From NCBI GenBank assembly GCA_965208815.1, contig OZ242357.1:1447710-1511709 (forward strand): a stretch of DNA of 64,000 nt, given 5' to 3'. The position numbers were made by a program, and so were the translations under genes. Under the pieces are notes generated by a model. It was not told the DNA's origin, made no database searches, and saw only the letters and a list, made by a program, of their open reading frames with translations. Shown here one piece after another: positions 8,768 through 38,000 of this stretch; within the stretch, counting starts at the first letter, position 1; every line of letters starts with the position of its first letter. The DNA is from Pseudomonadales bacterium (GTDB lineage Bacteria; Pseudomonadota; Gammaproteobacteria; Pseudomonadales; Azotimanducaceae).

Positions 8768-8769
8768 TT

Positions 8770-13887: not shown

Positions 13888-13891
13888 TCAT

Positions 13892-14971: not shown

Positions 14972-14977
14972 CCAAGG

Positions 14978-15787
14978 CTACGCCGCTGTCTGACCCCAAT
15001 CCATTGCATTCTCAACGATCTTAAGGAAATGATCGTTCGACCACGGCCCTCTAAAGGTTGTGGGAGTCGTTCCGTCCTCGTTTACGCTGGAATCTACAAA
15101 CGGTTGCATGTTCGTTGAAGGAGAGTGTGTATGACCGAGCGCGACATAGCAAACCGCCCCTTTTCCAACCAGTCTCTCCGTGCCTAGGAAACGTGTCTTG
15201 CCGTCAGATTGGATAGATGTGTCTTCGGTGTAGTGAAAACCAAAACCAGGCGGAGATGGATCTTCAACAAGTTCAGTGGAAAGCAATGGGTTGTCCACGC
15301 CTATTGGTTCAACAAGGTAGAGTTCATCTTCCACTTCAAATTCCGAAGGTAATCCGCGAAACAGGGCGTGTTCGCCAACCTCGACTCTTACCTTAAAGCG
15401 ACGAACCGGTGGGTGGTTTAGGAAATAAGCTCCCAGCAAGTCGTGGTGCGGCAATCGAACCATCTCCCGGCGATTGCTTGCGTCACTCAAGCGTTTTGCG
15501 CGACCGCCGCTCGTGCCGTGTAGTGCAAACCACTTGCCACCATCACTGAGCCATTGCTCTAGGAGTCGAGTTTGGTCGTCGTTTGGATAAGGTCCCGCAA
15601 CATAGGAAACTAGAAAATCTGCGGATTGAAGACGTTCGTCCAGGGACGAAAAGTCTTGCGCGACCGTAGTGTGGAATCTATGACGGTAGAGCATCTGCAA
15701 CAGTTGAATCCGTACAAAGTCCATATCGTGCCCTGCATTGGATCCGATTGGGAATCCACCTACGACTAAGTGTGCTCGTCCGCTCAA
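14978..15787 (-). CDS. ThuA-like / class-I glutamine-amidotransferase-fold protein (tentative)
   Basis: 269-aa ORF with a TTG start. LVVGG...H..., FALHGTSGG and VALGH segments resemble ThuA-domain proteins. Confidence 0.35.
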   Translation of the reverse strand: MSGRAHLVVGGFPIGSNAGHDMDFVRIQLLQMLYRHRFHTTVAQDFSSLDERLQSADFLVSYVAGPYPNDDQTRLLEQWLSDGGKWFALHGTSGGRAKRLSDASNRREMVRLPHHDLLGAYFLNHPPVRRFKVRVEVGEHALFRGLPSEFEVEDELYLVEPIGVDNPLLSTELVEDPSPPGFGFHYTEDTSIQSDGKTRFLGTERLVGKGAVCYVALGHTHSPSTNMQPFVDSSVNEDGTTPTTFRGPWSNDHFLKIVENAMDWGQTAA

Positions 15788-15835
15788 AATGCTTACCTCA
15801 AATCTAGGTGGAACGATGGTACTCGAATGCTTGTC

Positions 15836-16177
15836 CTAGAACTGAAACTCAGGAACCTCAACGTACAGGCCATCCAGTTCTTCAGTGACTGGAATTTGAC
15901 ACGACAAACGCGATGTTGGAGTGATTTCGGGGTTCATCCCAAGCATCGCTTCCTCATCGCTACTCGGCTCACCGAGTCTGTCATACCAATCGTCCGGCAG
16001 GATTACGTGGCAAGTGGCACATGAACACTCACCACCGCAGTCGGCGTCGATGCCGGGTATGCCGTTGTCAATGATGTTTTTCATTAAGGACAGTCCAACT
16101 TCGCCTTCGATTTCGTGCTTGGTACCGTCAAAAGAAACGACTGTGATCTGTGGGCCGGGCTTACTGCTGGTGTTCAT
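15836..16177 (-). CDS. [2Fe-2S] ferredoxin, adrenodoxin/putidaredoxin type
   Basis: CGGECSCATCH plus a distal SRLSC cysteine pattern. I chose the ATG at 16177 (a TTG at 16195 is possible). Confidence 0.85.
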   Translation of the reverse strand: MNTSSKPGPQITVVSFDGTKHEIEGEVGLSLMKNIIDNGIPGIDADCGGECSCATCHVILPDDWYDRLGEPSSDEEAMLGMNPEITPTSRLSCQIPVTEELDGLYVEVPEFQF

Positions 16178-16281
16178 GTTTGTAGGCAGACTCAATTAGA
16201 AATTCATTTGACGTAGTGATGTTTGATGATTACGCACACAATCTCTCGAAAACTGTCCGATTGATTACAATTATGACGCAT

Positions 16282-16357
16282 TCCACCTTAGCTCAGTTGG
16301 TAGAGCAGCTGACTGTTAATCAGCGGGTCGCTGGTTCGAGCCCAGCAGGTGGAGCCA
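16282..16357 (+). tRNA. tRNA-Asn (anticodon GTT) with encoded CCA
   Basis: Hand-folded cloverleaf: acceptor TCCACCT/AGGTGGA, D-arm GCTC..GAGC, anticodon stem GCTGA/TCAGC with loop CTGTTAA, T-arm GCTGG-TTCGAGC-CCAGC, then GCCA. Confidence 0.95.
16312..16357 (+). repeat. attL: 46-bp core (tRNA-Asn from the anticodon loop to CCA)
   Basis: Exact 46/46 match to 37822-37867, with mismatches immediately outside both ends. Confidence 0.85.
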
Positions 16358-16400
16358 GTTTTTACTGGGACTTCAGAAATTAGCATTCTCGCCAAATCAC

Positions 16401-16430
16401 TCTTGTCTCCAGTTTGTCACCAAATCGACA
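16401..16430 (+). promoter_or_regulatory. Tandem TTGTC(T/A)CC motifs (11-bp spacing); candidate integrase arm-type site near attL
   Basis: tcttgtctccagtttgtcaccaaatcgaca matches 36271-36300 at 24 of 30 positions, in the same orientation. Confidence 0.35.
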
Positions 16431-16972
16431 GCAATTCGCCAAACGCGCCTAATTCGAGGAACCTGCAAGAATGACGAAATTTCAACACTGAATTTCAAGA
16501 TCTGATCAATACAAAGGCAGGTCAATCTGCACAGGAATGTCATCCAGTCTTGCCACAGACCAAACTATAGGGGGCACACGCTTCAATGCGGTTCGAAACT
16601 CCTGTCTGTTCTCTACATCCATTGCGTTGATCACATGAGCGGTACTAACTCATGGAATTCTGGTTTTTTGGTTTCGAACATAGCTGTTTTGAACTAGTAA
16701 ATTTGGATTTTCTGGACGGGATTGCAATCCCACCGTGCAACTATAGTTGGCGCGCTTACTTGCACCGTTGCAACCTGCAAACGGCGCGGGCAGATTGCGG
16801 TCAGTAAAGATCTTAGTCGCGAGGCCTAGTCTTGGGAGATACGCTGTGGAAAACCTTTGCCCTGTCCGTGTCGCCAGTCCAAGGCCGGCAAACAGGGGCA
16901 TCTCGAAGCCGCGGACTGCGTTGTGCTTAATGGACTGTTTTTTTGCAAGCCCTTGGAAATTTTTTTGAAGAA

Positions 16973-18214
16973 CTATGGCGACTCTGGTGTAGCTGGCTGC
17001 ACACTGGACCAAATGGTCAGTCGTAGTTCGTTGTCGAATAGTTCATATATGGGTCGTCTTCCTGAATGCGTTTCGCTTGCTACAAGTATGTGACGAACTC
17101 CCTCGCCTCGCGATTCCAAAAAGGCGTTTCCAGTACGACGACTACTCATAGCCGAAAGAAATCGAACTAGGAGTTGATTTCTCGTGAAGACTCGATAGGG
17201 CATTGTGTTAACGGTGATGGTGTTTGGTAGGGCTCCGGGGCTATAAATCTCTAGTCGATCAGAGAAGAGGAAGAGGCGTATTTTCGCACCTGACATTGAA
17301 TAGTCACGATGAGCAACTGCGTTGACAATGGCTTCGTGTATCGCGTCCAGATCAAATTGCGGGTAATCCTTACGTCCCCGGTGCTTTAGCGCTGGCCTGA
17401 GCATGAAGCGGTCCACAAATGCAGAAGCATCATCGATCTGAGCATCTACAGTGCCATTGATTTCTTGACTGTGAACCAATTCATTCGAGTACAGACGATG
17501 TCCTCGGTATACCGCAGCCGAGATGAGCGCAGATTCCATGTACTTTTGTGGCTGCTTGCCAAACGCAAGAAGTCCTGAGACTGTTGGTCGTACTAGGTTA
17601 CTCTCATCTTGAGCCAACACTCGAGTATTCAACAACAGGTCGGTCCAAGGAATTGCCCCTCGTCCGTAACTGAAGAACGACTTCATGAACTCGTGGTCGA
17701 GATCGTCAGCGGTCGCGCCAGGCACCCATTGTTCGTCGAAAACGAATGCGCGACCGCGCTCTTGAAATAATCGCGCTAACATCGCACCAGCCAGCACCTG
17801 CTTGGAGTCTCCCACTCTTTCGTAGTGCAGACCATTGCGAGTACTGTGGACGTACAGACCCCGAGGAATTTCGACAAGCATTACAAGTTCGTTTGTGCCA
17901 GTCTTGCTAGTTAGTTTTTCTCGCCTGACAAGCGGGGTGATAGGTGGATCGCAGTTGTTTCTTGCAATGTTTACGATCCACTGTTCTACATGTGAAGCAT
18001 GTTCAAAGGGGATTCCTTGCACAATTCCAGAATTGTCCACCCCGAGAAACAGAACGCCTCCACTGGAGTTTGCGAACGCCACCATTTCACCAGCCATCGG
18101 ATCGGGTTTTGGAGAGCTTACGCGACCCTTCTCAAACTCGAGAGTCTTGAATTCCGCACGTGCATCCTCACGGTTCTCAAGTTGCCTTAGGACTTCTTCC
18201 TGCGTGTCAAACAT
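16973..18214 (-). CDS. AlbA_2 (Schlafen-like) + HATPase_c_4-like domain protein ('RecG-like' putative DNA-binding/ATP-binding protein)
   Basis: N-terminal ...EFK...VAFANSSGGVLFLGVDNSGIVQGI (AlbA_2 signature). The C-terminal half has HEAIVNAVAHRDYS...LEIYSPGALP (HATPase_c_4-like). Confidence 0.65.
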   Translation of the reverse strand: MFDTQEEVLRQLENREDARAEFKTLEFEKGRVSSPKPDPMAGEMVAFANSSGGVLFLGVDNSGIVQGIPFEHASHVEQWIVNIARNNCDPPITPLVRREKLTSKTGTNELVMLVEIPRGLYVHSTRNGLHYERVGDSKQVLAGAMLARLFQERGRAFVFDEQWVPGATADDLDHEFMKSFFSYGRGAIPWTDLLLNTRVLAQDESNLVRPTVSGLLAFGKQPQKYMESALISAAVYRGHRLYSNELVHSQEINGTVDAQIDDASAFVDRFMLRPALKHRGRKDYPQFDLDAIHEAIVNAVAHRDYSMSGAKIRLFLFSDRLEIYSPGALPNTITVNTMPYRVFTRNQLLVRFLSAMSSRRTGNAFLESRGEGVRHILVASETHSGRRPIYELFDNELRLTIWSSVQPATPESP

Positions 18215-18225
18215 TGTGCAACAAG

Positions 18226-21186
18226 CTAATAGCCGTACCGCTCTCTCCTAAGGCGGAACGCTTCCTCGCTCCCCTCCATAATTTCACTTACCAATTGCTT
18301 CATTTGTATCTTGTCAATGCTGCCAGATTCACGCACCGTTCCAAGGCGGTTTTCAGTTGCAAGAGCAACAATGAGCTCGGCATCTCCGTTTACTGGAATG
18401 TTCGCATTGTGAGTTGCAATGATCACCTGGCGAGAAAACTTTTGTCGTCTAAGCAAGTCTACAACTACGTTGTACACATAGCGATTGTCCAAGTCGTCTT
18501 CGGGTTGATCTATTACGATTGGGTGATCACCTGCAGATAGCAATAGACTCAAGATGGCAGTGCTCTTTTCCCCGACGGACCCAGCCTCTATAGACTTGAA
18601 CGAGCCATCCGGCGAACGCACTTTGGCAAGAACCAAGTCTTCGGGCAAAAACCTCTCCATTTCCTCAATATGAACTCGGTCTTTGCGAGTAAGTGCAGTG
18701 AAGATTGTTCTCGTTAATCTTCCTTCACCTGTAAGAAGATGTGCTAAGTTGGAATTGGATTGTTGAAGATTCGATTCAGTGCCAGCGAGTTCAATATCCT
18801 TGCGCATAGCACGGGACAGCGCAACTATCCGGTCGGGTACGTTTCCGTCTTGGCCAAAGACGTAGTCGCACAAAACGTTCCAATCCTGCTCTCGCAATCC
18901 TGATCCTCCGAACCATTGATCGCGCCGATCTTCGAAATCACTTCGGTCTGCGAACGGGCGAATTTCCAATCGAACATCTGCATCCCTTTCATCCAAGACT
19001 TGCGCCAGCTGTTTCCGGATATTGGCTCGCTCGTCGTGGCAATTTGCTAATCGTCGTTGCGTCTCAAGTACCTTCGCTTCGATTGACTCAATCTCCTTGT
19101 CTATACTTTGTAAGGAGTCAACTTCTCGCTCCAGTTGGGCTTTTCGTTGGAGCAATCGCTCGTGCTGGGCAAGCTCTATGTTGCGAGAGGACATTTCCTC
19201 GACAAGTGCAACATAGGCCGATCGTGTTTTGTCGTAGCCGCTTTGCCATGACGTCGACTGTTCGTTAGCTATTTCTTTCTCCAGGTCACGCAGTAAGCCA
19301 GCTTGCTCACGCAACGCAACAGCGGTTGCTTTAAAGGTGGAACCAATACGATCGGCAACGCGTACTAGCCAAGACTCTGTGGATGCAGTTGATTTGGGAG
19401 CTTTCGACTCCTTTTCCTCTTCCTCTATAGACATTGCTTCTTCTTCTATACTTGACGCAACGTTCTCGAGGCTTGTTCGCTGCTGGACTAACCAATTCCT
19501 TTGACGTTCAAACGTCTCGTAGTCCGCAAGCACTACCTCTCGCCCTTCACTTTTCAGGAAATCAATTTGATCGCTTACCGTGCGGAGATTGGTGACGACG
19601 GTTGGGATTGCATGACTCTTTTCGGTAAGACGTGTTCGAACGTTTTGCAAACGCTCAAGTTCCACAGTCAGCTTCTTTCTTTCGTCGTCGATAGCACTCA
19701 ATTCTGCCGGGTCGATTAGTGCATCCAACTCTGCTCGTTGAGCAGTAGGATTGCGAGCTATTTCTGCAATTTGCCGTTGGGAGAGAATTCTTGGTGCTAT
19801 TAGGCTACGCGGGTCCAGTAATACTATTTGGTGACTATCTCCATTCGTTTCCAGCGCAACGGTAAAGCCATGTGCATTTCGGGATATTCTGTAGTGCTTG
19901 TCGGCCACAACGAGATCGACAGATATCGTGTGATCGGGCAGCAACGTGCCCTTTGTGTCACCGAAATCACGATTGGCTTTCTCGCTAAGAACAGATACAA
20001 CAGCACTTCGTGAAGTTGTAGAGGAATCCCCAGGCAAGTCTTCGTATCGCGCTCGGTCCAAAACGTATCGCAAGTACTCGAGAATTGTCGACTTCCCGCT
20101 GCCGCGTCCACCAATGAGAGTAGTCAAGCACTGATTGAATGGGATGCTGGCTTCATTGTAGAAGTCTGTCCTTTGTACGATCAAACGTTCGATGCGGGGA
20201 TAGCTGCAACTAGGAGGTCCTTCCTCCATTCGCCTAAGTCGGGATTGAGGATCGAGCAGCGCTAGCCGGATGCCCTCAACATCTGGCACGGCCATTTTCA
20301 TCCAAGTAAATTTGCGACCTACAGTCTTGTAGTTGTGAGGGTCCGAACACTGTATCAACGGCCAGTGCTTCCCCGATCGAATTTGGTCCTTTTGAATATC
20401 CGTCAGTGTGTCCCAATCGTCAAACCTGCGTTGAGCAATCCATCGACACAACAGATCCTGAAACGCGGGAGGCAGATCTTCAAACTGTCGATTCGTTTGA
20501 AACCCGTGCCAATCCCTGCGACTTATGATTTGCTCGCGCAAGTGTCCCTTCATTTCGTCCCACAGCGACGTCGCATCTCCTAGATTGAACGTCGCTCCCA
20601 GAAGCTCATTAGCCAATCCTTTGCCACTATCAGCATGTGCGGGTATGACGAGGAATTTCATCCTTCGTTGCCCGTTTTGGGGCTGACAATAGGCATACAG
20701 TCGATCTAGAAAACCTAGAACTGATCGTCCTGTTGAGAGTGGGACACCGGAGTTGGGATCAAATCGATCACTTGCCCCAAAGACGTGGTTGATTGCATTA
20801 TCAATGTGGTTGGCATCTGTGCTAGCTTCAAATATGACGAGAATGTGGATCGGTCTTTCTCCTCCCACTGAGAACTCCACTCCAGGCAATATCACAGGCG
20901 TTGAGCGCTCATCAACACATCCAAAATATGGAGACAGGAAGCGATAGCCGTCGACACTGTTATGGTCTGTCAAGGCGATTACGTCCATTCCTTCACCATC
21001 GGCTGCCTCTCGACATGCTTGTATTACGCGTTCTGCAATCGCCTCTAAGCGAAGTGGGTCGGAGTCTCGAAATGACTGAATGGCCGCTTTGAGGTCTTCA
21101 CCGAATTTTTTCTCGGCGTCAAAAGGTGTATGCACATGCAAGTCACACCGCAACCATCGGGCTCCAAAATCAAACATCTGAACCAT
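18226..21186 (-). CDS. PHP-domain phosphoesterase fused to a Rad50/SbcC/SMC-like ABC ATPase with a long coiled coil
   Basis: 986 aa. N-terminal CDLHVHTP and ALTDHNS (PHP). Walker A GGRGSGKST, then several hundred E/R/Q/L-rich residues. Signature-like SVGEKSTAIL, Walker B IVIDQPEDDLD and ATHN follow. Confidence 0.7.
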   Translation of the reverse strand: MVQMFDFGARWLRCDLHVHTPFDAEKKFGEDLKAAIQSFRDSDPLRLEAIAERVIQACREAADGEGMDVIALTDHNSVDGYRFLSPYFGCVDERSTPVILPGVEFSVGGERPIHILVIFEASTDANHIDNAINHVFGASDRFDPNSGVPLSTGRSVLGFLDRLYAYCQPQNGQRRMKFLVIPAHADSGKGLANELLGATFNLGDATSLWDEMKGHLREQIISRRDWHGFQTNRQFEDLPPAFQDLLCRWIAQRRFDDWDTLTDIQKDQIRSGKHWPLIQCSDPHNYKTVGRKFTWMKMAVPDVEGIRLALLDPQSRLRRMEEGPPSCSYPRIERLIVQRTDFYNEASIPFNQCLTTLIGGRGSGKSTILEYLRYVLDRARYEDLPGDSSTTSRSAVVSVLSEKANRDFGDTKGTLLPDHTISVDLVVADKHYRISRNAHGFTVALETNGDSHQIVLLDPRSLIAPRILSQRQIAEIARNPTAQRAELDALIDPAELSAIDDERKKLTVELERLQNVRTRLTEKSHAIPTVVTNLRTVSDQIDFLKSEGREVVLADYETFERQRNWLVQQRTSLENVASSIEEEAMSIEEEEKESKAPKSTASTESWLVRVADRIGSTFKATAVALREQAGLLRDLEKEIANEQSTSWQSGYDKTRSAYVALVEEMSSRNIELAQHERLLQRKAQLEREVDSLQSIDKEIESIEAKVLETQRRLANCHDERANIRKQLAQVLDERDADVRLEIRPFADRSDFEDRRDQWFGGSGLREQDWNVLCDYVFGQDGNVPDRIVALSRAMRKDIELAGTESNLQQSNSNLAHLLTGEGRLTRTIFTALTRKDRVHIEEMERFLPEDLVLAKVRSPDGSFKSIEAGSVGEKSTAILSLLLSAGDHPIVIDQPEDDLDNRYVYNVVVDLLRRQKFSRQVIIATHNANIPVNGDAELIVALATENRLGTVRESGSIDKIQMKQLVSEIMEGSEEAFRLRRERYGY

Positions 21187-22063
21187 TGCTGTCTAAATTA
21201 CCCGGACCGTTAGGACGATTGACTTCGTTCGTTTCAGCAAACGACGCGCTTCTTGGAATTGGTGTTGCGAAGGGTACAAACTTGGCAACTGGAATGAAAG
21301 GAACTGTTAGTGAATGGAACCCAACAATAAAGTAGCATTTTAGCCTATGGATTGAGCATCTCAAGACACCACAAACTGCAAAGTTCGGCACGTGAGTACT
21401 TGTTCAAAAACAATGCATAGAGATTCGTCTCTAGCTTGGAGCTAATTCCCATTTTGAGCTCCACGAGAACCCGACAAGAACTGAACGGCACCAACAAGCG
21501 TGGGCATCCGCTACGGACAATGCTGAACGAGAGCGCACTCTGTCTGCTGCACGTGCGAGATGGATTCTACTGGCAGAGAGCGCTAAAGAGGGCGCATTGC
21601 AGCACTTTCATCGCATAGTTGCCAAACCCCCGAAGACAGTAATGAAGGAAACCAGATGCACCGGTAACATTCAATGGCGGGACTGAAACTAGGCACATCA
21701 TCAAGCTCCATCGAAAGAACGATCCAGGTACTTCACAATCTGGATGCCACTCAAGTTGTAGAAAGTTGTGTACTGTAGCCGGGGAATCAGCTTGGTTTCT
21801 AAAAACCATTAGGCCAATGGCTTGTAATTGGCTCGTTAATAGAACAAACAAAAAAAACGATGATCTGGAGGTGATAGGCGACGGCGAGCCAAGGTGGCTC
21901 TCAGGAAACTGGAAAACGCAATTTAGGGACGTTGACTTGGATAGACCTACACAACGAGGTTTTTCTGCAACGATTGTTTCCCTCCAATTGAGATGTTAAA
22001 ACAACGGGCAGACCAACCATATCCTAAAATTTGGCTCAATCGCATAAACCGAACACGCAACAA

Positions 22064-22954
22064 ATGTCTAGAGCGCTAAATCTGATGTCTGTTTTTCGTG
22101 ATAAGGCGGCAGAACTGCAGCATGCACGAACTCAATCAGCTCTAATTCACGGGACATCAGACATACGAGCAGCAGGAAACCGAGTAGAAGACGCGTTCCG
22201 TGACTTTCTCAAGAGCGTTCTTTCTCCTCGTTACTACGTTACACACGGCCACCTTATTGATGACAGCGGGCGAACGAGTCCACAATTGGATGTGATAATC
22301 GCTGACCAGTTTAATTTGACCTCGGTTTTGACAGGCAGTGATGGAACACAATATATACCTGCAACGTCTGCATTTGCAATTGGCGAGGTCAAATCAACCT
22401 ACAACAATTCCAAGAATCACTTCAAAGAGTTTACCGACAAGATCTCATTGATCCACGAAGAGTTATCGCGACCGCTAGTTTTAAATACGGTATTTACACT
22501 TTCGAATGATACAGAACTTCATCATGCAATATTGGGAAGTTCTTTTAAATATTTGAATTATTTGTATTCTTTCCTATTTTGTATTGATTCTGGTGATTTT
22601 CAATTCGAGAAATTGAGCCCTATTCTTACAAGTTCGGAACCTCAATACTTGCCTAATGTCTCTGTGTTTCTAAGTGGAGAAAGTTCTGGTATTTTGGCGT
22701 ACGCAAAAAGCAACTCAAACGGCATTAGCTATCATAAGTACCCATGCGAAGTACAGAATCAAGGGTATAGGTGGTGCTTTATACGAGGACACGACATTGA
22801 CGAAGGATCGCGTGAAGGTGTTCATCTTGCTAATCTTTATGCACAAATATATGATCATCTCGCTGGTTCCCACCTTGAACGTACTAAGGTCTACGACTAC
22901 CTTCGAGAAATGGTATATCGTGGTTTCTCTAAGTCTTCGATTAGATGGATTTAG
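22064..22954 (+). CDS. Orphan PD-(D/E)xK-like nuclease-fold protein (DUF6602-like, tentative)
   Basis: ATG at 22064. SPQLDVIIAD ... AIGEVKS fits a D...(E)xK nuclease core. The gene is visibly AT-richer than its neighbours. Confidence 0.45.
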   Translation: MSRALNLMSVFRDKAAELQHARTQSALIHGTSDIRAAGNRVEDAFRDFLKSVLSPRYYVTHGHLIDDSGRTSPQLDVIIADQFNLTSVLTGSDGTQYIPATSAFAIGEVKSTYNNSKNHFKEFTDKISLIHEELSRPLVLNTVFTLSNDTELHHAILGSSFKYLNYLYSFLFCIDSGDFQFEKLSPILTSSEPQYLPNVSVFLSGESSGILAYAKSNSNGISYHKYPCEVQNQGYRWCFIRGHDIDEGSREGVHLANLYAQIYDHLAGSHLERTKVYDYLREMVYRGFSKSSIRWI

Positions 22955-24324
22955 GGAGACTATACTCCAACTAGAACCGAATTGAATGCCCTAGAATTTT
23001 GCCGAGACTCGCAAAGCGTTTCCGACGCGCTAGAATACTTTGTCTTGTCTACGCGCTCGAAGCCCGATTTCCTTATATTTTTAGATCGAGGCGGAACTCG
23101 GATGATCGCTCTCCTCAGAGCTACATACCGGCGATCCCGCATTTGACCAGATGTAGGAAACGCTTCACGATGTATACGACATGCCCCAAGATGAGTTCTG
23201 AGCAGTTCCGCGTTAGTTCCATGTCGCTGCGCTCATGAATTTTCATTTGTTGTTGATCGCGGCGACGAGACGCTTCGCGCGGGCGCGGGACCGGATCCTA
23301 GCTATCGAACAGTGGATCGCCTCACGCATTTCTAGCATGCCTGCTCGCTTCTTCGCCAAAAACGCGGAACCAGATACAGGCGTAATAGGATGAGAGTTTC
23401 GGACTAATCGAGTATGAGTCGAGCCAACAATTCATTTAACACGGTTTAGTGCGATAGCAACAACGGGGCAATCCAAAACTGCGCGCACAATGTGGAAGTG
23501 TTTCCGTGCGAACTCCTCAACAGGCCGACCAATTGGCAGAAGTCGCCACAGGTTAGTGGGCTGTGCACAATGGCTAAAGGAGGATACACACGGGTAAGGC
23601 AACCAACGCCTCTGCATTCCCCAAAATCGATCCTGGGACGCTCAAAAGAAACTGTGCGTTTACTATCACAAGACGGCGAAAGGGAATGGAACCAAATCGA
23701 TCATGGTCTCGGTGGCCCGAGCGCTGGCAGGCTACTTGTGGGACAGTGGACGCAACTCCATGGACCAACTGCAATTATCGTGCACGCGAGCAGCGTGACT
23801 GCAACCGCAACTTAGCCCGATACTGAACCGATCTCGTACACGAGCGACATGAATGCTACCTGGGAACACTCGAATACGCTATGCGGACTGCTCGAACGAG
23901 GAGCGATCCTCGCTGGTAGACTGAGAATAGCCTTGTTAAGCTGTAGCATTCTGTAGTGGCAAACCTACGCATGACAGAGTCCCCATGGTTTATTTCTTCA
24001 TTCAGGGAGCCCTTCGACAAGGAATCGAAATTGGCTAGTGATGTTCTTTACTCCATTGAATCCCTGCGAGCAGTCAAAAAATGAGAGCGAATTTTCTTTC
24101 GATAACAAGAACAGAAGGTATCCGTGAACACCATTGTAAGAGCGCTCCGGTTGGTGCTAAGAAAAATCAAGAAGATACCATGCTCGATATCTTGAAGCCA
24201 GCCATATCATTTAACTTGCCACAAGCCGATAGGTATGTGCCTGAAGGTGCGTGCACAAGACCTTCGAAGAGTGAAAAAGCATCTAGATACATTAAGCTCG
24301 GGTTAAAGCAGGACGTTTGATTAA

Positions 24325-27120: not shown

Positions 27121-27144
27121 CAAACTCTAGCTCCTAGGACGGCT

Positions 27145-29490: not shown

Positions 29491-30480
29491 AACGCTTGTT
29501 GCCAGATAGAGTGCTAATTTAAGCCTGAGTCTAATTTCCATAGGATTTCAGCTCGTTTCACGTTTTATGAGGTATGGGTTCCTGGGGGAGCCATTCGATT
29601 ACGCAACGTCTCATACTGACAGAACGTTTTCACCTACAAAGCCATTTATCCCATCCTGACGCGAGGCTTGGTGCAGTGACAGGACAAGCTTACTGCAATA
29701 GCAATTGGTGGTCTCACAACGTGGGCCTCTATACAATTGGTTGAAACCCCAGAATCAAGGATTATGAGATGCCGGGCCCACTGGAAGTAGACTATAGAGA
29801 CATTGAAAGGCTGAGTGCCGACAGATTGACTTGTCTCCTGAGCAAATTGCTCAGATGCGAGGCTACGAAAAACTCCATTCCTCAGAGTTCAATAGAAGTG
29901 GGAATGAACATTAGTGCTCCTGATGGAGGCATTGACGCTCGAATTGAATGGAAGGATATACCAATCAAAACGGATTTCCTACCATGCCAAAGCTGTGTAT
30001 TCCAAATTAAATCTGGCCGGGTTCAACCGAACGACATTAAGCTTGAACTTACAAACAAGGACACAATCAAGCCCCTAATTGATCGAGCGTTCCAATCGGA
30101 GTCTGCATACATCTTGTTCGTTGGTCAAGAGAGAAATGTCATGAATGCCGACAAGTTGAAGAATGCAATTCGAAATGTTCTTAAAAGCAACGGCAAGAGC
30201 TATGCAGATTCAGCATCGATCCACATATATGACGCTGAAAAAATCAGAAATTGGGTTAATTCTTTCCCGTCGGTAACCATGGACGTCTGCAACTGGAGTG
30301 GCAAGCCCGTCCCTACCGGATTGATGTCGTTGGACTCCTGGCAGCAGTTTAGTGATCACGCGGAAACCAACTTCGTAGTCGACGATCAGAGACGTCAAAT
30401 ATATACCTACTGTGTTGCTCAAAAATAGTGGGAATCAAAACGAGGTGTTTTAGTATAGATTCCCCTAGGAGCACACAATC

Positions 30481-30774
30481 ATGTCCAAACGAGTTGCCTT
30501 GACGGCGGAGGAGCGAGGAGAGCTGGTTCTTCGTCTGCTTCGGAAGGAAGCCACGGCATCGGATCTTGCCCGCGAGGCATCAATCTCCGAGCCCACGCTG
30601 TACCAGTGGCGCGACGCCTTTCTTCGCGCTGGATTCGCCGGCTTGAACGGACGTTCCGACCGCGACTCGGAGAGGCGACGGCACGCTCGGGAGCTGGCGC
30701 AGCGGGACCAGGTGATCGGCGAGATGACCGTGGCTCTGAAAGTGCTAAAAAAAAACTTGGGGGTCTCCGAGTGA
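30481..30774 (+). CDS. IS3 OrfA (HTH transposase subunit)
   Basis: 97 aa with an HTH (...ASDLAREASISEPTLYQWR...) and a leucine-zipper-like tail. Confidence 0.85.
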   Translation: MSKRVALTAEERGELVLRLLRKEATASDLAREASISEPTLYQWRDAFLRAGFAGLNGRSDRDSERRRHARELAQRDQVIGEMTVALKVLKKNLGVSE

Positions 30775-31748
30775 CGCAGGAGCTTCGCGATCGGGTTCGC
30801 CAAGAGATGGAGGCCTGGAACGGAAAGCTGCGTCTGACCCGTCTGCTGACCCATCTGGGAGTGTCGACGTCGACGTGGTACCGACTTCCGAAGGGAGACT
30901 CGGAACCTCGGGGACGACCTCGGGATCCCCTCGATCCCGTCCGCGTCGAGGCGGTTCGGGACCTCTGCCGGCGCTATCCTTTCTGGGGCTACAAGCGCAT
31001 CGCGGTGGTGGCCCGGAGAGACGTCGGCCCGGGCTATTCCGACCGTCTGACGTACCGCATCATGCGGGAGCTGAACCTGCTGCAGAAGCGGGCTCCCCGC
31101 CGTGCCGAGCTGCACCAGACGAGGCACCTGTTCGAGCTGCTTCCCTCGCGCCCCAACGATCTGTGGCAGATGGACGTGACCTACCTCCACCTGCCCCAGG
31201 GGCACTGGTGGTACGCGGTGACGGTGATCGACTACTACTCCCGGTACCTGCTGGCGTGCCATCTGACGCCGTTCCAGAACGCGGGCTCGGTGGCGGTCGC
31301 CCTGGATCTCGCCCGGGCCGAGGCGGAGCGCTTCCACGGTCCGCTGGATCGCGAGCCGACGCTGGTCACCGACAACGGCTCGTGCTTTCTGGCCCGCAAG
31401 TTCCAGAAGCACATCGAGGAGCGGTTCTCCCATGTGCGGATCCAGTATCGAACCCCGCAACAGCTGGGACTGCTGGAGCGGTTCCATTCGACGTTGAAGA
31501 AGGAGGAGGTGTACTGGCGCATGTACGACGGACCCAACCATGCCCGGCAGTGTCTCGAGGAGTTCCGCGATCGCTACAACCGGGTGCGGCCGCACTGGGC
31601 GCTCCGGCCCTCCGAGAAGGAGGATCCACTGACGCCCGCCGACGTCTACGAGGACGGCCTGGCGGTCGTCATACCGAAGTGGCAGAAATGGGCGAGGGCG
31701 GCGAAGAAAAAACTGGAGGAGGCAGCTATGGAACGGAAGGCCGCGTAG
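30606..31748 (+). CDS. IS3 OrfB (DDE/rve integrase-core), normally made as an OrfAB fusion by -1 frameshifting
   Basis: The frame is -1 relative to orfA. WQMDVTY...VIDYYSR...TDNGSCF...LKKEEVY are rve DDE motifs. The functional part starts near the A-run at 30747. Confidence 0.85.
   Translation: MARRLSSRWIRRLERTFRPRLGEATARSGAGAAGPGDRRDDRGSESAKKKLGGLRVTQELRDRVRQEMEAWNGKLRLTRLLTHLGVSTSTWYRLPKGDSEPRGRPRDPLDPVRVEAVRDLCRRYPFWGYKRIAVVARRDVGPGYSDRLTYRIMRELNLLQKRAPRRAELHQTRHLFELLPSRPNDLWQMDVTYLHLPQGHWWYAVTVIDYYSRYLLACHLTPFQNAGSVAVALDLARAEAERFHGPLDREPTLVTDNGSCFLARKFQKHIEERFSHVRIQYRTPQQLGLLERFHSTLKKEEVYWRMYDGPNHARQCLEEFRDRYNRVRPHWALRPSEKEDPLTPADVYEDGLAVVIPKWQKWARAAKKKLEEAAMERKAA
30747..30755 (+). promoter_or_regulatory. 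A9 slippery run; candidate -1 programmed ribosomal frameshift site
   Basis: Nine consecutive A at the orfA/orfB overlap. IS3-family members typically frameshift on A-rich heptamers. Confidence 0.6.
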
Positions 31749-34700
31749 CCATGAACCACGAAATTTCTCTACACCGAAAAATTCCCGCTAATTTTGATAG
31801 CAAGACACTACATTCAAGAGCTACTCGCAACAGAACGCAGACAAATGAGAATTACTGGTCTGTCCGGAGTCGGCAAAACTCGTCTCGCAATTGAGGCATT
31901 GCGAGATTGCGATTTCGCTAGGGATAGGGTCGTGTATGTTGACACACAAATCTGTAAGACCTTTAGTCCTGGTTCACTCCAAACATGGATTGAGAGAGAT
32001 TTGAGTGGGACATTGGTTGTGGACAATTGTGATTTGCGGACACACCAGCTTCTCGTAGATCAAGTTACGCGTTCGGAGAGCAAGTTCGCTCTACTCACTA
32101 TGCACCTCGAACCAGATGCCAAATACGATGACTCCTCCGCATTTTTCCTTTCACCAATGCAGGACAAGTACATTAGCGAGATTTTGGAGCCCATCTACAG
32201 GAATCGTATATTGGACTTCGACCGTGTCGTGGAATTTGCACAGGGATTTCCCAAAATGGCAGTACTCCTTGCTAAAGCGAGACTGGCACAATCAAAGGAA
32301 ATTGGGAAGCTTGATGACGACGTAATGTTAGACAAATTATTAGGAGACCAGGCCAAAATTAATCAAGAAAGAAAAATTCTCAGTGCCTGCGCGTTATTCG
32401 ATAAGTTTGGGCTAGTCGACGGCGCATCAGAAGAGTACAAGTTCGTTGCGTCGCAAATCGCCAATGTTGAGAGCGATACTCTCTATGAATGTGTAGCCCG
32501 CCAAGCGAAGAGAGGAATAGTCGGTCGGTTCGGTAGGTACGCACAAGTCGTACCTAAACCATTTGCAATCAGACTTGCTGCGGACTGGTGGGATACTACT
32601 TCCCCAGACAAGATTTCAGGCCTTCTGGAGACCGAAATGCCTGGACAATTGGAAGACAGCTTTTGTAATCAGGTTTCCAAACTCGACTTTTTGCCGCGTG
32701 CTAAACAACTTGCTGCAAAGCTTTGTGGAGAACAAAGCCCTTTTGGGCGAGCGGAAGTGATCCTGTCAGATAGGGGTTCTCGTCTCTTCCGCTATTTTGT
32801 AGAGGTGAATCCCGTGATAACCGCGAATTCCATTCGACGTGCAATTGGTACATTAAGTGATGCCAAGTTGCTCAACATGGTCGGAGCAACACGAAGAAAC
32901 TTAGTTGTTTCGCTTGAAAAGCTCTGTTTTCGTGAGGAAACGTTTGAGACAGCAGGATGGTCTCTCATGCGACTTGCAATGAATGAGAGTGAGTCTTGGA
33001 GTAACAATGCAACCGGCTTGTTCAAACAGCTGTTTAGAGTCTTTGTGTCCGGCACATCCGCTCCCCCAAAAGTCCGACTCAGATTGATTGACTCGGTTCT
33101 TGCGTTGAACATGGATGCGTCCCGCATCTTAGCTATTAAAACACTTTCTTCCGCGCTAGGATCTCACGGGCCCGGTCGACTTGTTGGAGCGGAATTCCAA
33201 GGTAGCAGCACAACATTGGAAGAATGGCGACCCGAGATTTGGCAGGACGCGTTTGATTATTGGGTACAAATTATCAAACGATTGACACAGTTGGCATTGA
33301 ATGACTCTCCTCAACGATCTCTTGCTAAAGCCGAATTGGGCAAGAACATAAGGTTCCTGGTTCTGAGCTCAAGGTTCATTGTTGACTCACTTGACGAAGC
33401 AATTCACAAAGTTGTGAGTTCTAGTGAACCCTTGTGGGTCGAGGCACTTGAGAGTATCACCTACACTCTTGAGGCCATTGATGACGATACCCCAGCCCAT
33501 GCAGTAGACAAACTTCGAGAATGGTATCAATTGCTCCAACCCATCAAACTCGAGGAAAAATTGTTTTTGTACGTGACGTACGCATTCTACGACTATCGCA
33601 AGTCGGTCGAAGGGGACTACATCGACAACGCCACGACCAACGTTGAGATTCTGGCAAAGGAGCTTTCCACTGAGATCGAATCTTTGCTTCCCCATGTACC
33701 GAGATTACTCGAGACAGAACAGAGACAAGGTTTCCATTTTGGACGGACTTTCACCACCCATGCTAACGAATGGGACAGAGTATTCGACTGTGCCGTTGAC
33801 TTCGTAAGAAAACATTCTGACGCTCACATAGGATTTCTCTGTGGAATGCTGGCTGGAATCCACGACATTAGCCCAGCCAATTGGTGCATCCACCTCGATA
33901 GCTTCTCCGAGGACAGAGATCTGGTGCTCTACTATCCCGAATTTCTGAAGACTGGACTAATCAACCCCTCACACCTAAAGACTCTTGTCGAGAAACTGAG
34001 AACCAAATCGTTCGACGTAGATGCCCTTGCGTCACTAAGTCAATGCTTGAGCATGAGTTCGTTGCCAGCAAGATTAGTGGACAGTTTCCTACTTGATGTG
34101 TCCCACCACTCACCAAGAGCCCGATGGGTAGCATTGGACCTATTGACTATGTATTGCCATGGCGAGGACACTCACCAAAATCATAGCAATGTATTCCGCA
34201 GGCTCTCCCTTGCTATCCCTTCGTTTTGGGATCATCGTAGTAGCAGCTCAATTGATTCGCACAATTGGAAGGAAGCTGTGTTCAAAGTCCTATCGTGGAA
34301 TGGTGATCGAGAGTTCGCAGTTTCGATCACAAAAAGAATACTGATGCTGCTGGCCGAAGGAAACTACACCGAGACTACCTATGTTTTCGACCCAATTCTG
34401 CGCAGAGTACTTGATCTATATCCTCAAGAGACATGGCTTGAAATTTCAGCGTTTATAGAAACGGCAAATTCGGCCGAGCGATTCTGTCTAAGGGAACTGT
34501 TCAGGTGTGAAGAGCTCATAGAACGAGAACACCGTGTCAGCCTCTACTCAGAGGTGCCAGAAAATCTGATAGAGGATTGGTGCAGGAACTCACCAGAAAT
34601 CGCACCAATGTTTGTAGCCGAAACGACAGAAGTTTTTCAGACAGATGGGAAAACATTTTCATTGGCACCCCGGGTTGAATTCTTACTGGACAATTTCGGA

Positions 34701-35067
34701 AAAGTCGACTCCATGCTTGACGCTCTTCGAGCCAATTTGGATACGTTCTCTTGGAAGGGTTCTGCGATCAAGCACTATAAGCGAGAAATTTCAATTTTGA
34801 GAAAACTCGAGGAACACTCCGAGCTTGAAGTTCGCAATTGGGCTTTCGGGAGAATCGAAAGACTTAAGGAGCGAATCGAGTATGAAGAGATGATTGAACA
34901 AGAGCGAAGCATTGGTCTAATCGATCGCGGTTGACAGATTGCGATGTGTAGCGATGCTAGTTGGCTTGGGGAAAGACCTGCCGGATGGGTCTGGCAAAAC
35001 CGGTTGTGCGTTATCTCTTGCGTGACTAGACCAATTAGTTTCGTCGAACGAATGATTCAAGTCGACA

Positions 35068-36250
35068 CTACCAAGTGAGGCTATCGCGAAGTAGCAATAG
35101 ACTGGCTTTGTTGCCCATCATCGCTCTCCACATCATCGACGCCGCTTTCTCATGCGCTTCGCGCAGTGCTTCGGACGCTAGCCGCACGTAGCGATTACTC
35201 ATCGCGATCGTCGCGTGACCAAGGACGTCGCGTAGTATGAAGGCATTAGCACCTGTAGCCGCAAGGCTAGTCGATACGGAACGACGCAAATCGTGCAACT
35301 TCACATCTTCCAATTCCGCTTGACTAGTTGCCATGGCAAAGTACTTGCGAAGCGTTCGGTAGGTGATATGCGTGTTCTCATATGCGCCCACGAATACCCA
35401 TTCGTTGCCATTGACTCTTGGTAGTTGAGTCAATGTGTCGATGACTGGATCTACGAGGGGTATGATGCGTCTACCTGTTTTGGTTTTAGGCAACACCATC
35501 CGTGAGGACTCCAGATTCACGTTCTCCCACCGCAACCCCAAGACTTCACCTATGCGAAATCCTGTCATGGCAGCGAATCGATCGCTGCCACCGCAAACGG
35601 CTGATCTGCTTCCAACCCCGTAAGTTCATCGTTCAGTTTGGCCAATTCGGAACTCGACAAGACCCGATCGCGTGGTTCCTCTTTCGTACGTGTTATGCCT
35701 CGGCAGGGATTGGTACCCGGTTGCCTATATTCCCATGTTTCAGCAGGAGTGAAAATTCGGGAAAGGAAAGTGTGCGGTTCCTCATTGTGGGCGCAACAAT
35801 GCCTTCGACAAGCATCTCAATTTCGCGACGCCCAATTCGTTCAATTTTTCTGCCGCCAATCTTCGAACGAACAAAACGAGACTGTTTGAGGTATTCCATT
35901 TCCGTGCGTTCGCACATCCGATTTGCATCGATCCGTGAAGGTACGAACTCACCGAAAAACCGATCCAACATTTCATTGACAGTGGGAGCGAGTTTGGCTT
36001 CGAGTTTGCGCTCTAGGGGGTCGAGTTGGCCCGATCTGATATTGGCAAGTTCCGCACCGGCCATTTCGCGAGCCTTGCGCAATGAGATTTCTGAACATCG
36101 ACCTAGAATTGCTTGTCGTTTGCGTCCCCCAACCGTGTAGCGTAAGATGTAGCTCTTTTTGCGCGGAGTGATTTGCACACCCAATCCTTTGACGACGTTG
36201 TCCCATATCGTGAAGGTTGTTCTCTTGATTGGAAGTCTCGCATCACGCAC
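35068..36250 (-). pseudogene. int: P4-like tyrosine recombinase (integrase) with two frameshifts
   Basis: The N-terminal arm/DUF4102-like ORF is 35693-36250. The middle segment (TFLSRIFT...NPCRGITRTKEEPRDRVLSSSELAKLNDEL...FAVAAI) is readable only in another frame. The catalytic C-terminus, 35068-35568 (R...HDLRR...GH...Y), is in the third frame. Confidence 0.8.
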
Positions 36251-36270
36251 GATCCGCTAAGTTAGCAATT

Positions 36271-36300
36271 TTTTGTCACCTTTTTGTCACCAGAACGACA
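36271..36300 (+). promoter_or_regulatory. Tandem TTTTGTCACC motifs upstream of int; candidate arm-type site or int operator
   Basis: ttttgtcacc tttttgtcacc agaacgaca lies about 20 bp upstream of the int start. It is homologous to 16401-16430. Confidence 0.35.
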
Positions 36301-36469
36301 TAACAACATCAGCAAACGCAAGATTATTATTTCATTAATGGGCTTCTATAAATTAATCAAATCAATTATTTATGGTAAATATGAGCAAATGCAGGAATCT
36401 GTGTTGCTCAAAAATAGTGGGAATCAAAACGAGGTGTTTTAGTATAAATTCCCCTAGGAGCACACAATC

Positions 36470-36763
36470 ATGTCCAAACGAGTTGCATTGACGGCGGAGG
36501 AGCGAGGAGAGCTGGTTCTTCGTCTGCTTCGGAAGGAAGCCACGGCATCGGATCTTGCCCGCGAGGCATCAATCTCCGAGCCCACGCTGTACCAGTGGCG
36601 CGACGCCTTTCTTCGCGCTGGATTCGCCGGCTTGAACGGACGTTCCGACCGCGACTCGGAGAGGCGACGGCACGCTCGGGAGCTGGCGCAGAGAGACCAG
36701 GTGATCGGCGAGATGACCGTGGCTCTGAAAGTGCTAAAAAAAAACTTTGGGGTCTCCGAGTGA
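36470..36763 (+). CDS. IS3 OrfA
   Basis: 97 aa, one substitution relative to copy A in the supplied translation. Confidence 0.85.
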   Translation: MSKRVALTAEERGELVLRLLRKEATASDLAREASISEPTLYQWRDAFLRAGFAGLNGRSDRDSERRRHARELAQRDQVIGEMTVALKVLKKNFGVSE

Positions 36764-37737
36764 CGCAGGAGCTTCGCGATCGGGTTCGCCAAGAGATGGA
36801 GGCCTGGAACGGAAAGCTGCGTCTGACCCGTCTGCTGACCCATCTGGGAGTGTCGACGTCGACGTGGTACCGACTTCCGAAGGGAGACTCGGAACCTCGG
36901 GGACGACCTCGGGATCCCCTCGATCCCGTCCGCGTCGAGGCGGTTCGGGACCTCTGCCGGCGCTATCCTTTCTGGGGCTACAAGCGCATCGCGGTGGTGG
37001 CCCGGAGAGACGTCGGCCCGGGCTATTCCGACCGTCTGACGTACCGCATCATGCGGGAGCTGAACCTGCTGCAGAAGCGGGCTCCCCGCCGTGCCGAGCT
37101 GCACCAGACGAGGCACCTGTTCGAGCTGCTTCCCTCGCGCCCCAACGATCTGTGGCAGATGGACGTGACCTACCTCCACCTGCCCCAGGGGCACTGGTGG
37201 TACGCGGTGACGGTGATCGACTACTACTCCCGGTACCTGCTGGCGTGCCATCTGACGCCGTTCCAGAACGCGGGCTCGGTGGCGGTCGCCCTGGATCTCG
37301 CCCGGGCCGAGGCGGAGCGCTTCCACGGTCCGCTGGATCGCGAGCCGACGCTGGTCACCGACAACGGCTCGTGCTTTCTGGCCCGCAAGTTCCAGAAGCA
37401 CATCGAGGAGCGGTTCTCCCATGTGCGGATCCAGTATCGAACCCCGCAACAGCTGGGACTGCTGGAGCGGTTCCATTCGACGTTGAAGAAGGAGGAGGTG
37501 TACTGGCGCATGTACGACGGACCCAACCATGCCCGGCAGTGTCTCGAGGAGTTCCGCGATCGCTACAACCGGGTGCGGCCGCACTGGGCGCTCCGGCCCT
37601 CCGAGAAGGAGGATCCACTGACGCCCGCCGACGTCTACGAGGACGGCCTGGCGGTCGTCATACCGAAGTGGCAGAAATGGGCGCGGGCGGCGAAAAGGAA
37701 ACTGGAGCAGGCAGCTCTGGAACGGAAGGTCGCGTAG
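36595..37737 (+). CDS. IS3 OrfB (DDE/rve), -1 frame relative to orfA
   Basis: Near-identical to copy A OrfB. Differences cluster at the C-terminal tail. Confidence 0.85.
   Translation: MARRLSSRWIRRLERTFRPRLGEATARSGAGAERPGDRRDDRGSESAKKKLWGLRVTQELRDRVRQEMEAWNGKLRLTRLLTHLGVSTSTWYRLPKGDSEPRGRPRDPLDPVRVEAVRDLCRRYPFWGYKRIAVVARRDVGPGYSDRLTYRIMRELNLLQKRAPRRAELHQTRHLFELLPSRPNDLWQMDVTYLHLPQGHWWYAVTVIDYYSRYLLACHLTPFQNAGSVAVALDLARAEAERFHGPLDREPTLVTDNGSCFLARKFQKHIEERFSHVRIQYRTPQQLGLLERFHSTLKKEEVYWRMYDGPNHARQCLEEFRDRYNRVRPHWALRPSEKEDPLTPADVYEDGLAVVIPKWQKWARAAKRKLEQAALERKVA
36736..36744 (+). promoter_or_regulatory. A9 slippery run (candidate -1 frameshift site)
   Basis: Nine consecutive A at the orfA/orfB overlap. 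Confidence 0.6.
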
Positions 37738-37821
37738 CCATGAACCACGAAATTTCTCTACACCGAAAAATTCCCGCTATTTTTGATAGCAAGACAAATC
37801 ACACAAAATTCTCAAAAAACT

Positions 37822-37867
37822 ACTGTTAATCAGCGGGTCGCTGGTTCGAGCCCAGCAGGTGGAGCCA
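37822..37867 (+). repeat. attR: 46-bp duplicate of the tRNA-Asn 3' part
   Basis: Exact match to 16312-16357. There is no 5' half of a tRNA upstream, so this is not a second tRNA gene. Confidence 0.85.
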
Positions 37868-38000
37868 CCTCTTCCTTTCGTAACTCGGGCGCATCAAGGC
37901 GCAAGTTTAGCCGAGTACCTCCTAGATCCAAATGCGTTCAGACCTCAGGATTTGCGAACGTGCTTCTCCATGTTCAAGTCACACATAGACGTTTTGATGT

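Follow-up and report, generated by a model that had tools for sequence, protein, structure and literature searches.

We report a strain-specific insertion of 21,510 bp at a tRNA-Asn(GTT) gene of an uncultured Pseudomonadales bacterium. The DNA analyzed is a stretch of 64,000 nucleotides (GCA_965208815.1, contig OZ242357.1, positions 1,447,710 to 1,511,709; hereafter the window, with coordinates counted from its first base). Within it, the inserted DNA occupies positions 16358 to 37867 (equivalently, 16312 to 37821), is bounded by a 46-bp direct repeat of the 3' part of the tRNA gene, and is missing in a conspecific as well as in two relatives at a greater distance. The interval is very probably a classical integrative island that targets a tRNA gene, and we infer its mobility from its anatomy and from its presence in one genome versus its absence in others. 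Judged by family membership, its cargo consists entirely of predicted anti-phage defense modules, five in number: a TrlF-TrlG pair, a DUF6602 nuclease, an MmeI-type enzyme, a GmrSD-Schlafen fusion, and an Avs8A-type gene. Four rival explanations of the interval are each contradicted by specific results and, even taken jointly, are unlikely.

The tRNA-Asn site is empty in related genomes

Relatives were reached by a protein homology search with the oxidoreductase encoded in the right flank (38001 to 39575, minus strand), followed by look-up of the contigs. Homologues of this protein were found at 98% identity (P0123) and at 83 to 87% identity (P0124 to P0127). One of the contigs, L082, is a conspecific metagenome scaffold of 314 kb (ENA ERZ23491743). 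By blastn, its positions 1 to 11754 matched positions 49572 to 37822 of the window with 99.1% identity, and its positions 11709 to 21575 matched positions 16357 to 6490 with 99.4% identity. The two matches share exactly the 46-bp core as overlap, and a five-way alignment revealed that the unoccupied site (attB) consists of the left half of the left junction (attL) joined to the right half of the right junction (attR). The gene order of L082 (ABC transporters, oxidoreductase, tRNA-Asn, ferredoxin, ThuA, acyl-CoA dehydrogenases) is that of the right flank of the window joined directly to the left flank.

An earlier first-pass annotation of the window, made from its letters, had proposed to look in related genomes for tRNA-Asn joined immediately to the sequence from 37868 onward. 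This arrangement was found in four contigs (L082, L085, L086, and L088). L085 also encodes P0123, whereas L086 and L088 are more distant (∼85% and ∼84% nucleotide identity, respectively), and a tRNA-Asn gene was called at the expected place in L085, L086, and L088. Since attB is empty in these relatives, the 21,510 bp represent a strain-specific insertion at the tRNA-Asn attB. The end of a conspecific NCBI contig (GCA_009840545.1, "MAG: Gammaproteobacteria bacterium"), which stops 17 nt past the core within the 5' half of the tRNA, would also fit an unoccupied site. Among the matches listed for the right-flank oxidoreductase in GTDB representative genomes, the best was 63% identical and had no adjacent tRNA. 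Two JGI metagenome scans with the junction sequence and the 46-nt core gave no match. In L088, a 301-aa gene with a weak HSDR_N match (581 to 1486) lies upstream of a conserved 1154-aa gene; closer relatives do not have it, and it marks another small variable spot.

We considered that the block might be ancestral at this locus and that the empty sites arose by deletion in the relatives. If the 46-bp direct repeats recombined with each other, the product would be precisely what is seen in L082, and the base composition of the block is near that of the core. However, three lineages (99%, about 85%, and about 84% identity) lack the block precisely, so that repeated identical losses would be needed. 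Moreover, the repeat is a signature of integration, an integrase gene but no housekeeping gene lies inside the interval, and the repeat copies are still identical although attR is not under selection. Nor did we find relatives with the whole gene block but without the repeat, which according to the first-pass annotation would have argued against an island; only a 4.35-kb cassette with the trlF and trlG genes (see below) occurs elsewhere, in another context. We therefore regard an ancestral block as very improbable, and even so its entry would have been by site-specific integration, just earlier.

Four independent assemblies of this species and of relatives (L083, L084, L087, and L089) break in or at the tRNA-Asn gene, 160 to 200 bp past the oxidoreductase gene. 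These breaks could mean several identical copies of tRNA-Asn or population heterogeneity at the integration site. For an assembly or binning artifact, in which foreign DNA was joined at a repeated tRNA sequence, one could cite those same-species assemblies that break there as well as the apparently metagenome-derived origin of the 3.6-Mb source contig. Nevertheless, a chimera would need two coordinated misjoins at the 46-bp repeat. We observed both junctions, and the way in which they divide attB is precisely that of a real integration. The indel rate is also very low: over 21.6 kb compared with L082, the window showed just 2 gap openings next to 156 substitutions. An artifact is thus highly improbable.

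The 46-bp repeat and the proposed integration event

ARAGORN called a single tRNA in the whole window, tRNA-Asn(GTT) at positions 16282 to 16357 on the plus strand, in agreement with Rfam (RF00005, 69.1 bits). The gene is intact, with its CCA encoded. No further tRNA was found by Rfam, either at the gathering threshold in the whole window or at an E value of ≤0.1 in positions 16300 to 37900. Direct reading of the sequence and a repeat search bore out the claim of the first-pass annotation that the 3' 46 nt of this gene recur exactly: positions 16312 to 16357 (attL core) and 37822 to 37867 (attR core), both on the plus strand, are identical at 46 of 46 positions. As it had also stated, the bases immediately outside the two copies differ, with TG at attL versus CT at attR upstream and GTTTTT versus CCTCTT downstream. 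The number of exact 46-bp repeat pairs expected by chance in 64 kb is ∼4e-19. When a 25-nt core was searched with ≤3 mismatches, only these two sites were recovered, compared to 0 in 100 shuffles. Internal degenerate att sites, which would be a sign of a tandem array, were not found in the search.

According to the first-pass annotation, the repeat extends from inside the anticodon loop to the CCA. Its end was correctly placed, but the alignment with attB and the repeat search put its start one base before the loop, at tRNA position 31, where the 5' strand of the anticodon stem ends. The block spans the whole 7-nt anticodon loop (16313 to 16319), the variable and T arms, the 3' strand of the acceptor stem, and the encoded CCA. 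The attR copy is a displaced 3' fragment of tRNA-Asn without a 5' half; a complete second tRNA gene at 37800 to 37870, envisaged earlier as an observation that would speak against an island, was called by neither ARAGORN nor Rfam.

In the integration event that we propose, an element with a P4-type tyrosine integrase and an attachment site of its own (attP) would have integrated by recombination into tRNA-Asn on the chromosome. Its attP would have contained the same 3' 46 nt as tRNA-Asn(GTT), spanning the anticodon loop to the CCA, and strand exchange would have occurred inside this 46-bp identity, the anticodon loop being the probable site. The copy brought in by the element would now complete the functional tRNA at attL, while the original 3' end would have been moved 21.5 kb downstream to attR.

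Integrase remnant and insertion sequences

Near the attR end, the island contains a pseudogene of a P4-type tyrosine integrase (Arm-DNA-bind_3 plus catalytic domain; 35068 to 36250, minus strand), which was recognized by Pfam matches of fragments and by reading in three frames and is transcribed inward from that end. One fragment matched PF00589 with an E value of 4.8e-24. The empty attB found in relatives supports the interpretation of the first-pass annotation, which had considered the interval a tyrosine-integrase island. Two frameshifts are located between about 35568 and 35700. After stitching of the three frames, the 395-aa product covered positions 2 to 170 of the 172 positions of the Phage_integrase profile, with a complete catalytic domain and intact catalytic residues. 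The frameshifts are probably real and not assembly errors, because there are few gap openings compared with L082 and because no homopolymer of ≥5 bases is present at the shift sites.

The P4-type integrase with its Arm-DNA-bind_3/DUF4102 N terminus might also come from a degraded P4-like phage satellite or a phage-related element, in which the defense genes sat in a variable hotspot and the satellite genes have since been lost. P4-like satellites are known carriers of defense hotspots, and the island includes about 2.8 kb without an open reading frame (ORF), which could represent eroded genes. In contrast, neither the ORFs nor the six-frame scans revealed satellite primase, capsid-size, cos, or regulatory genes or any phage structural or replication gene, and an IMG/VR scan for the 46-nt att core gave no matching contig. 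Of the four rivals, this satellite remnant retains the most plausibility, but we still consider it distinctly less probable than a genomic island and, in itself, quite unlikely.

The island further contains two copies of an IS3-family insertion sequence (IS) in the same (direct) orientation on the plus strand. Copy 1 (30411 to 31807; 1397 bp; GC content of about 60%) was delimited by alignment of the copies, its boundaries, its inverted repeats, and its target duplication (CTAC at 30407 to 30410 and 31808 to 31811). Copy 2 (36400 to 37796), identified by alignment with copy 1 and by matches to NCBIfam transpos_IS3 and Pfam rve, is flanked by an AATC duplication (36396 to 36399 and 37797 to 37800) and lies between the start of the integrase gene and attR, only 25 bp from the core. 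Between the copies, 13 of 1397 positions differ, and both have an A9 slippery run at the orfA/orfB junction. The separate target duplications mark the copies as simple insertions that occurred independently.

Two direct, 99%-identical IS3 copies inside the interval, one of them so close to attR, are also what might be expected of a composite transposon or an IS-mediated rearrangement. However, the duplications, one per copy, indicate simple insertions without recombination between the copies. In addition, the inserted DNA ends at the tRNA core and not at the IS ends, and in silico removal of copy 1 restores an ORF of 1254 aa. A composite transposon is therefore extremely improbable. As an integrative island, the element is instead decaying, with its integrase disabled and its Avs8A-like gene split by IS3. 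Since the integrase is frameshifted and an IS3 copy lies between it and attR, the island probably cannot excise by itself.

Defense genes carried by the island

ORF and Pfam scans found no housekeeping gene between the repeats, as the first-pass annotation had noted. Its list of contents (a PHP-SMC-like ATPase operon, a PD-(D/E)xK-like orphan, an MmeI-like enzyme, a GmrSD fusion, an Mrr-STAND gene, an integrase remnant, and two IS3 copies) was correct in every item by Pfam, PADLOC, and NCBIfam. It did, however, not mention that the Mrr-STAND gene, although rightly identified, is interrupted by IS3. PADLOC, which it had recommended, returned matches to Ppl, PD_DExK/NucC effector, REase_MTase_IIG, and PD-Lambda-4_A. 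The interval had also been thought the most likely place in the window for an undescribed system. Judging from profile matches, every large ORF of the island falls into a named family (TrlF/TrlG, DUF6602 ["Damona"], MmeI, DUF262-Slfn, or Avs8A), and because these families are all described, we see no evidence of such a system.

The trlF-like gene (18226 to 21186, minus strand) encodes a predicted protein of 986 aa with an N-terminal PHP phosphoesterase domain and an SMC/Rad50-type ABC ATPase with a long coiled coil. It matched NCBIfam NF045780 with 471.1 bits (cutoff, 350), residues 8 to 985 being aligned to positions 2 to 944 of the 944-position profile. PADLOC assigned it to Ppl (1.8e-43; best stretch, residues 558 to 983), but against the Ppl equivalog model NF042955 it reached 240.7 bits, below the cutoff of 1000. 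By these scores, the protein appears to be related to Ppl without being a Ppl equivalog. Its N terminus has the PHP motif HVHT and a weak PHP match (E value of 0.0057). An AlphaFold2 (AF2) model had a pLDDT of 74 overall and was good for residues 330 to 960; Foldseek searches with it returned MukB, Smc, JetC, Rad50, RecN, and LmuB, which are heads with coiled coils. Only 11 bp separate this gene from the trlG-like gene on the same strand (16973 to 18214, minus strand), the 413-aa product of which combines a Schlafen/AlbA_2 domain (PF04326, 1.5e-15) with HATPase_c_4 (PF13749, 1.2e-16) and has EDARAEFK as its Schlafen Ex4ExK motif. A promoter scan identified a promoter-like site upstream of trlF (21364 to 21337).

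By blastn, positions 17007 to 21358 (minus strand) matched the metagenome contig L081 with 88% nucleotide identity, in a different context without a tRNA. The matching segment includes about 170 bp upstream of the genes, ending 172 bp upstream of trlF. Since L081 shares the trlFG region only, and in another context, the pair moves as a 4.35-kb cassette. Adjacency of TrlF and TrlG was seen in 3 of 4 other contexts, at 90% (L081), 60% (L090), and 52% (L092, a Rhodothermaceae metagenome-assembled genome [MAG]) identity. In L081 (3052 to 9876), the cassette adjoins a 1186-aa HTH_3 protein, an IS1595-type transposase, and small unknown ORFs; the contig otherwise carries NorB/COX1 genes, and the cassette site is another variable region. 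In L091 (6001 to 11359; GCA_012516115.1, a Firmicutes MAG), a TrlF homologue of 53% identity is located in a BREX locus, between BrxC/PglY-like and BrxL genes, and is followed by a 786-aa protein without a Pfam match instead of a TrlG-type gene.

The DUF6602 gene (22064 to 22954, plus strand; PF20247, 1.8e-18) encodes 296 aa when read from its ATG, the mechanical ORF starting at 22031. PADLOC matched its product to PD_DExK and NucC effector. The AF2 model (pLDDT of 93.8) was superimposed by Foldseek on NucC (6uxf and 6p7p) with an E value of 3e-13 and TM scores of 0.74 to 0.76 over the whole NucC chain, and on the strength of this model the protein is predicted to be a stand-alone nuclease of the NucC fold. 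With a GC content of 0.41 and a GC at third codon positions (GC3) of 0.37, its gene is the only one in the island with a clearly deviant composition. No CD-NTase or type III CRISPR system was present beside a DUF6602 homologue (P0252, 54% identical) in four contexts.

Parts of the island lack a convincing ORF. Two ORF-less stretches, 21187 to 22030 (0.85 kb) and 22955 to 24324 (1.37 kb), yielded no pseudogene remnants; six-frame Pfam scans and Rfam at an E value of ≤0.1 were empty there. The arm beside attL (16358 to 16972) has only a 120-aa ORF without a Pfam match and is not shared with L081, similarity to which stops at 17007. A DUF6602 homologue (L094 to L097) is likewise followed by about 1.4 kb with small ORFs only; since the sequences are unrelated, we rejected the idea of a conserved noncoding partner 3' of DUF6602.

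Downstream, on the plus strand, lies a gene (24325 to 27120) for a predicted type IIG restriction-modification enzyme of the MmeI family (931 aa). All five MmeI domains are represented by Pfam matches, namely, the N-terminal nuclease, helicase-like spacer, methyltransferase, target-recognition, and C-terminal domains. The protein scored 1132 bits with PADLOC REase_MTase_IIG and 912 bits over residues 2 to 921 with the MmeI crystal chain 5hr4_C, and its translation contains a D-X9-EXK nuclease motif and the methyltransferase motifs FxDPACGxGNF and NPPF. Enzymes of the MmeI type modify their site, as m6A in a single strand, and cut at a fixed distance of about 20 nt from it.

A co-oriented gene 24 bp further downstream (27145 to 29490, plus strand) encodes a putative 781-aa GmrSD-Schlafen fusion with a DUF262 domain, a possible DUF1524-like His-Me finger, and a C-terminal AlbA_2/Schlafen domain. 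The match to GmrSD_N (PF03235) had 103 bits (cutoff, 33.2; 3e-29) and includes the NTPase motif DGQQR (LLLDGQQRLTSL in the translation). GmrSD_C/DUF1524 (PF07510), centered on IDIHHIFP...N, remained below its cutoff (17.7 versus 23 bits; E value of 0.0034); homologues of ∼600 aa cover this region. AlbA_2 (PF04326) matched residues 626 to 763 with 52.5 bits (cutoff, 25.3; 8.5e-14), the Ex4ExK motif being ESIVLEFK. In a search of 1.84 billion cluster representatives, relatives of the fusion were mostly about 600 aa long and covered residues 5 to 600, while about 6 of the top 150 reached through the Schlafen domain.

The last module is an Avs8A/PD-lambda-4A-like STAND gene, which has no uninterrupted reading frame as it is split by IS3 copy 1. 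Its 5' part (29769 to 30410, plus strand) encodes an Mrr-like nuclease effector and matched positions 5 to 203 of the 1283 positions of the PADLOC profile PD-Lambda-4_A. The 3' part (31812 to 34934, plus strand), assigned by ORF reconstruction, encodes a P-loop (GLSGVGKT) and sensor repeats. Without IS3 copy 1 and one copy of CTAC, the single 1254-aa ORF mentioned above is restored, and the reconstructed protein matched positions 5 to 1273 of the profile (E value of 9.6e-74). In its split state, the gene is presumably inactive.

Composition and absent components

Several observations weigh against a horizontally acquired, site-specifically integrated island with functional modules. The k-mer profile recommended in the first-pass annotation was only partly informative: tetranucleotide distances were modestly raised in the island (0.16 to 0.22, compared to 0.13 to 0.17 in the core), and GC3 was 0.46 versus 0.50 ± 0.035, corresponding to a slightly lower GC content. 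Composition barely sets the island apart and would not alone have found it. No excision product or attP was seen, nor was an intact copy of the same island found elsewhere. The integrase gene is situated at the end of the displaced fragment and not beside the intact tRNA, unlike in those islands of the P4 type that are best known. Genes for an excisionase, for replication, or for transfer were not found in the island. With regard to the cargo, ORFs and multiframe translations of 21187 to 22030 yielded no HTH or Pfam match that would indicate a trlR-like gene or its remnant, and the island has no CD-NTase/cyclase or Cas10 to activate a NucC-like nuclease.

Other features of the window

An ABC ATPase gene in the right flank (41514 to 43313) was considered as a further defense gene on the basis of a PADLOC match (mad3, 3.5e-26). 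It was rejected, as two ABC-transporter genes occupy the same place in the core of island-free relatives; the automated defense annotation of this gene is probably a false positive.

In the core region outside the island, a 1.7-kb IS1380-family element is present twice, at 1214 to 2914 and 53968 to 55668, and the copies are about 99% identical. Their transposase is encoded on the minus strand (NF033539, 1.4e-57), their terminal inverted repeats are perfect (CCTTGATATCCGGTTAAG), and their GC content is 60 to 66%, compared to about 49% in the host. The second copy is adjoined by tandem paralogues (55576 to 57696 and 58304 to 60259; 67 to 82% nucleotide identity), which encode proteins of 650 to 700 aa with a C-terminal AhpC/TSA-thioredoxin domain. 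Both IS families, IS3 and IS1380, have GC contents about 10 to 15 points above that of the genome, near-identical copies, and intact target duplications. Because of these properties, a recent invasion from higher-GC donors and ongoing transposition are suggested for both.

Significance and comparison with known systems

The locus provides a clean natural defense island, for which the occupied and the empty site are both available at 99% identity, in a host apparently known only from metagenomes. It illustrates the acquisition of defense modules en bloc and their subsequent erosion by insertion sequences, with Avs8A knocked out and the integrase disabled. Since tRNA-integrated defense islands are already well known, it adds little in principle. 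Its practical value lies in candidates for testing, namely, the TrlF-TrlG pair, the GmrSD-Schlafen fusion behind an MmeI-type enzyme, and a stand-alone nuclease of predicted NucC fold without a cyclase in view. Among these, TrlF-TrlG, a pair linking immunity of the Ppl type and the Schlafen type, is the least-studied part of the island and the one most worth an experiment.

The Yersinia high-pathogenicity island is an example of an island at asn tRNA genes. In the Islander collection, 3760 of 3919 islands had a 3' fragment and 2083 had an anticodon-centered site (Hudson, Lau and Williams 2015, PMC4383910). A 3' tRNA gene fragment together with an anticodon-centered site defines the commonest Islander class, and the island described here belongs to it. 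It combines the features by which Islander recognizes islands: an intact tRNA with a 3' fragment in the same orientation, a PF00589 integrase between them, and an unoccupied site in relatives. As in Islander islands, the displaced fragment is located downstream, the block of identity is centered on the anticodon loop, the integrase gene lies inside, and presence is strain specific. In contrast to them, the cargo is by prediction purely defensive, the integrase is a pseudogene at the fragment-proximal end, and the host, an uncultured gammaproteobacterium, has apparently been encountered in metagenomes only.

Among the cargo proteins, the MmeI homologue resembles MmeI (PDB 5hr4) in all five domains and in the nuclease and methyltransferase motifs, and a corresponding activity is predicted from its sequence. 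From GmrSD/BrxU/SspE type IV enzymes, the fusion protein encoded behind it is distinguished by an added Schlafen domain, which most homologues lack, and by the position of its gene after that of an MmeI-type enzyme. Among published Schlafen architectures, DUF262-Slfn is the fitting one; the assignment is by architecture, with DGQQR in an N-terminal DUF262 domain, a putative His-Me finger motif, and Ex4ExK in a C-terminal Schlafen domain. A DUF262-Slfn fusion, the E. coli UC4224 protein, was reported to give Escherichia coli protection from phages T3 and T7 (Taboada et al. 2025, bioRxiv 10.1101/2025.07.24.666596).

Published Avs8 (PD-lambda-4) binds the HK97-fold major capsid protein, which activates its Mrr nuclease, and Avs8B is dispensable. 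The gene described here matches the Avs8 profile over its full length once the IS is removed and shares the Mrr-like N terminus and the P-loop, but it is split by IS3 and has no Avs8B partner, which, as stated, is reported to be dispensable. The DUF6602 protein shares its predicted fold with NucC, a cA3-activated nuclease of CBASS and type III CRISPR systems, over the whole NucC chain; however, it is longer (296 versus about 240 aa), only 13 to 18% identical, and has no cyclase or Cas10 nearby. A DUF6602-containing cassette, "Damona," is counted among the anti-phage systems of Vibrio integron cassettes, and likeness to it consists of the shared Pfam domain (DUF6602) and the same PADLOC cross-hits only.

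The closest described counterpart of TrlF-TrlG is the temperature restriction locus (TRL) of Photorhabdus, whose operon trlR-trlF-trlG restricts growth at 36°C; mutations in trlG or deletion of the operon permit growth at this temperature (Hapeshi et al. 2020, bioRxiv 10.1101/2020.06.02.129163). A literature search retrieved no paper describing TRL as a phage defense system, the published phenotype being temperature restriction only. We nonetheless consider it possible, if somewhat short of likely, that TrlF-TrlG is a widespread two-gene anti-phage (abortive-infection) system not yet described as one and that the temperature restriction in Photorhabdus is its autoimmunity. The mobility of the cassette as a 4.35-kb unit and the TrlF homologue inside a BREX locus bear on this idea. 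In such a system, TrlF, a Ppl-like ATPase-phosphoesterase of PHP/SMC type, would detect or process invading foreign DNA and control TrlG, a predicted Schlafen-type tRNase with a GHKL-like domain, which would act as the growth-arresting effector. Compared with TRL of Photorhabdus laumondii, the pair described here lacks a trlR-like small regulator upstream but has a full-length match to the TrlF family and a TrlG of the same AlbA_2 plus HATPase_c_4 architecture. From the single-gene anti-phage protein Ppl, TrlF is set apart by its score with the equivalog model (241 versus a cutoff of 1000), although it matches Ppl models. TrlG, in turn, has the architecture of the pSlfn-HisKinase class; Slfn-HisKinase is the commonest architecture of bacterial Schlafens, which cleave tRNA (Taboada et al. 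2025, bioRxiv 10.1101/2025.07.24.666596).

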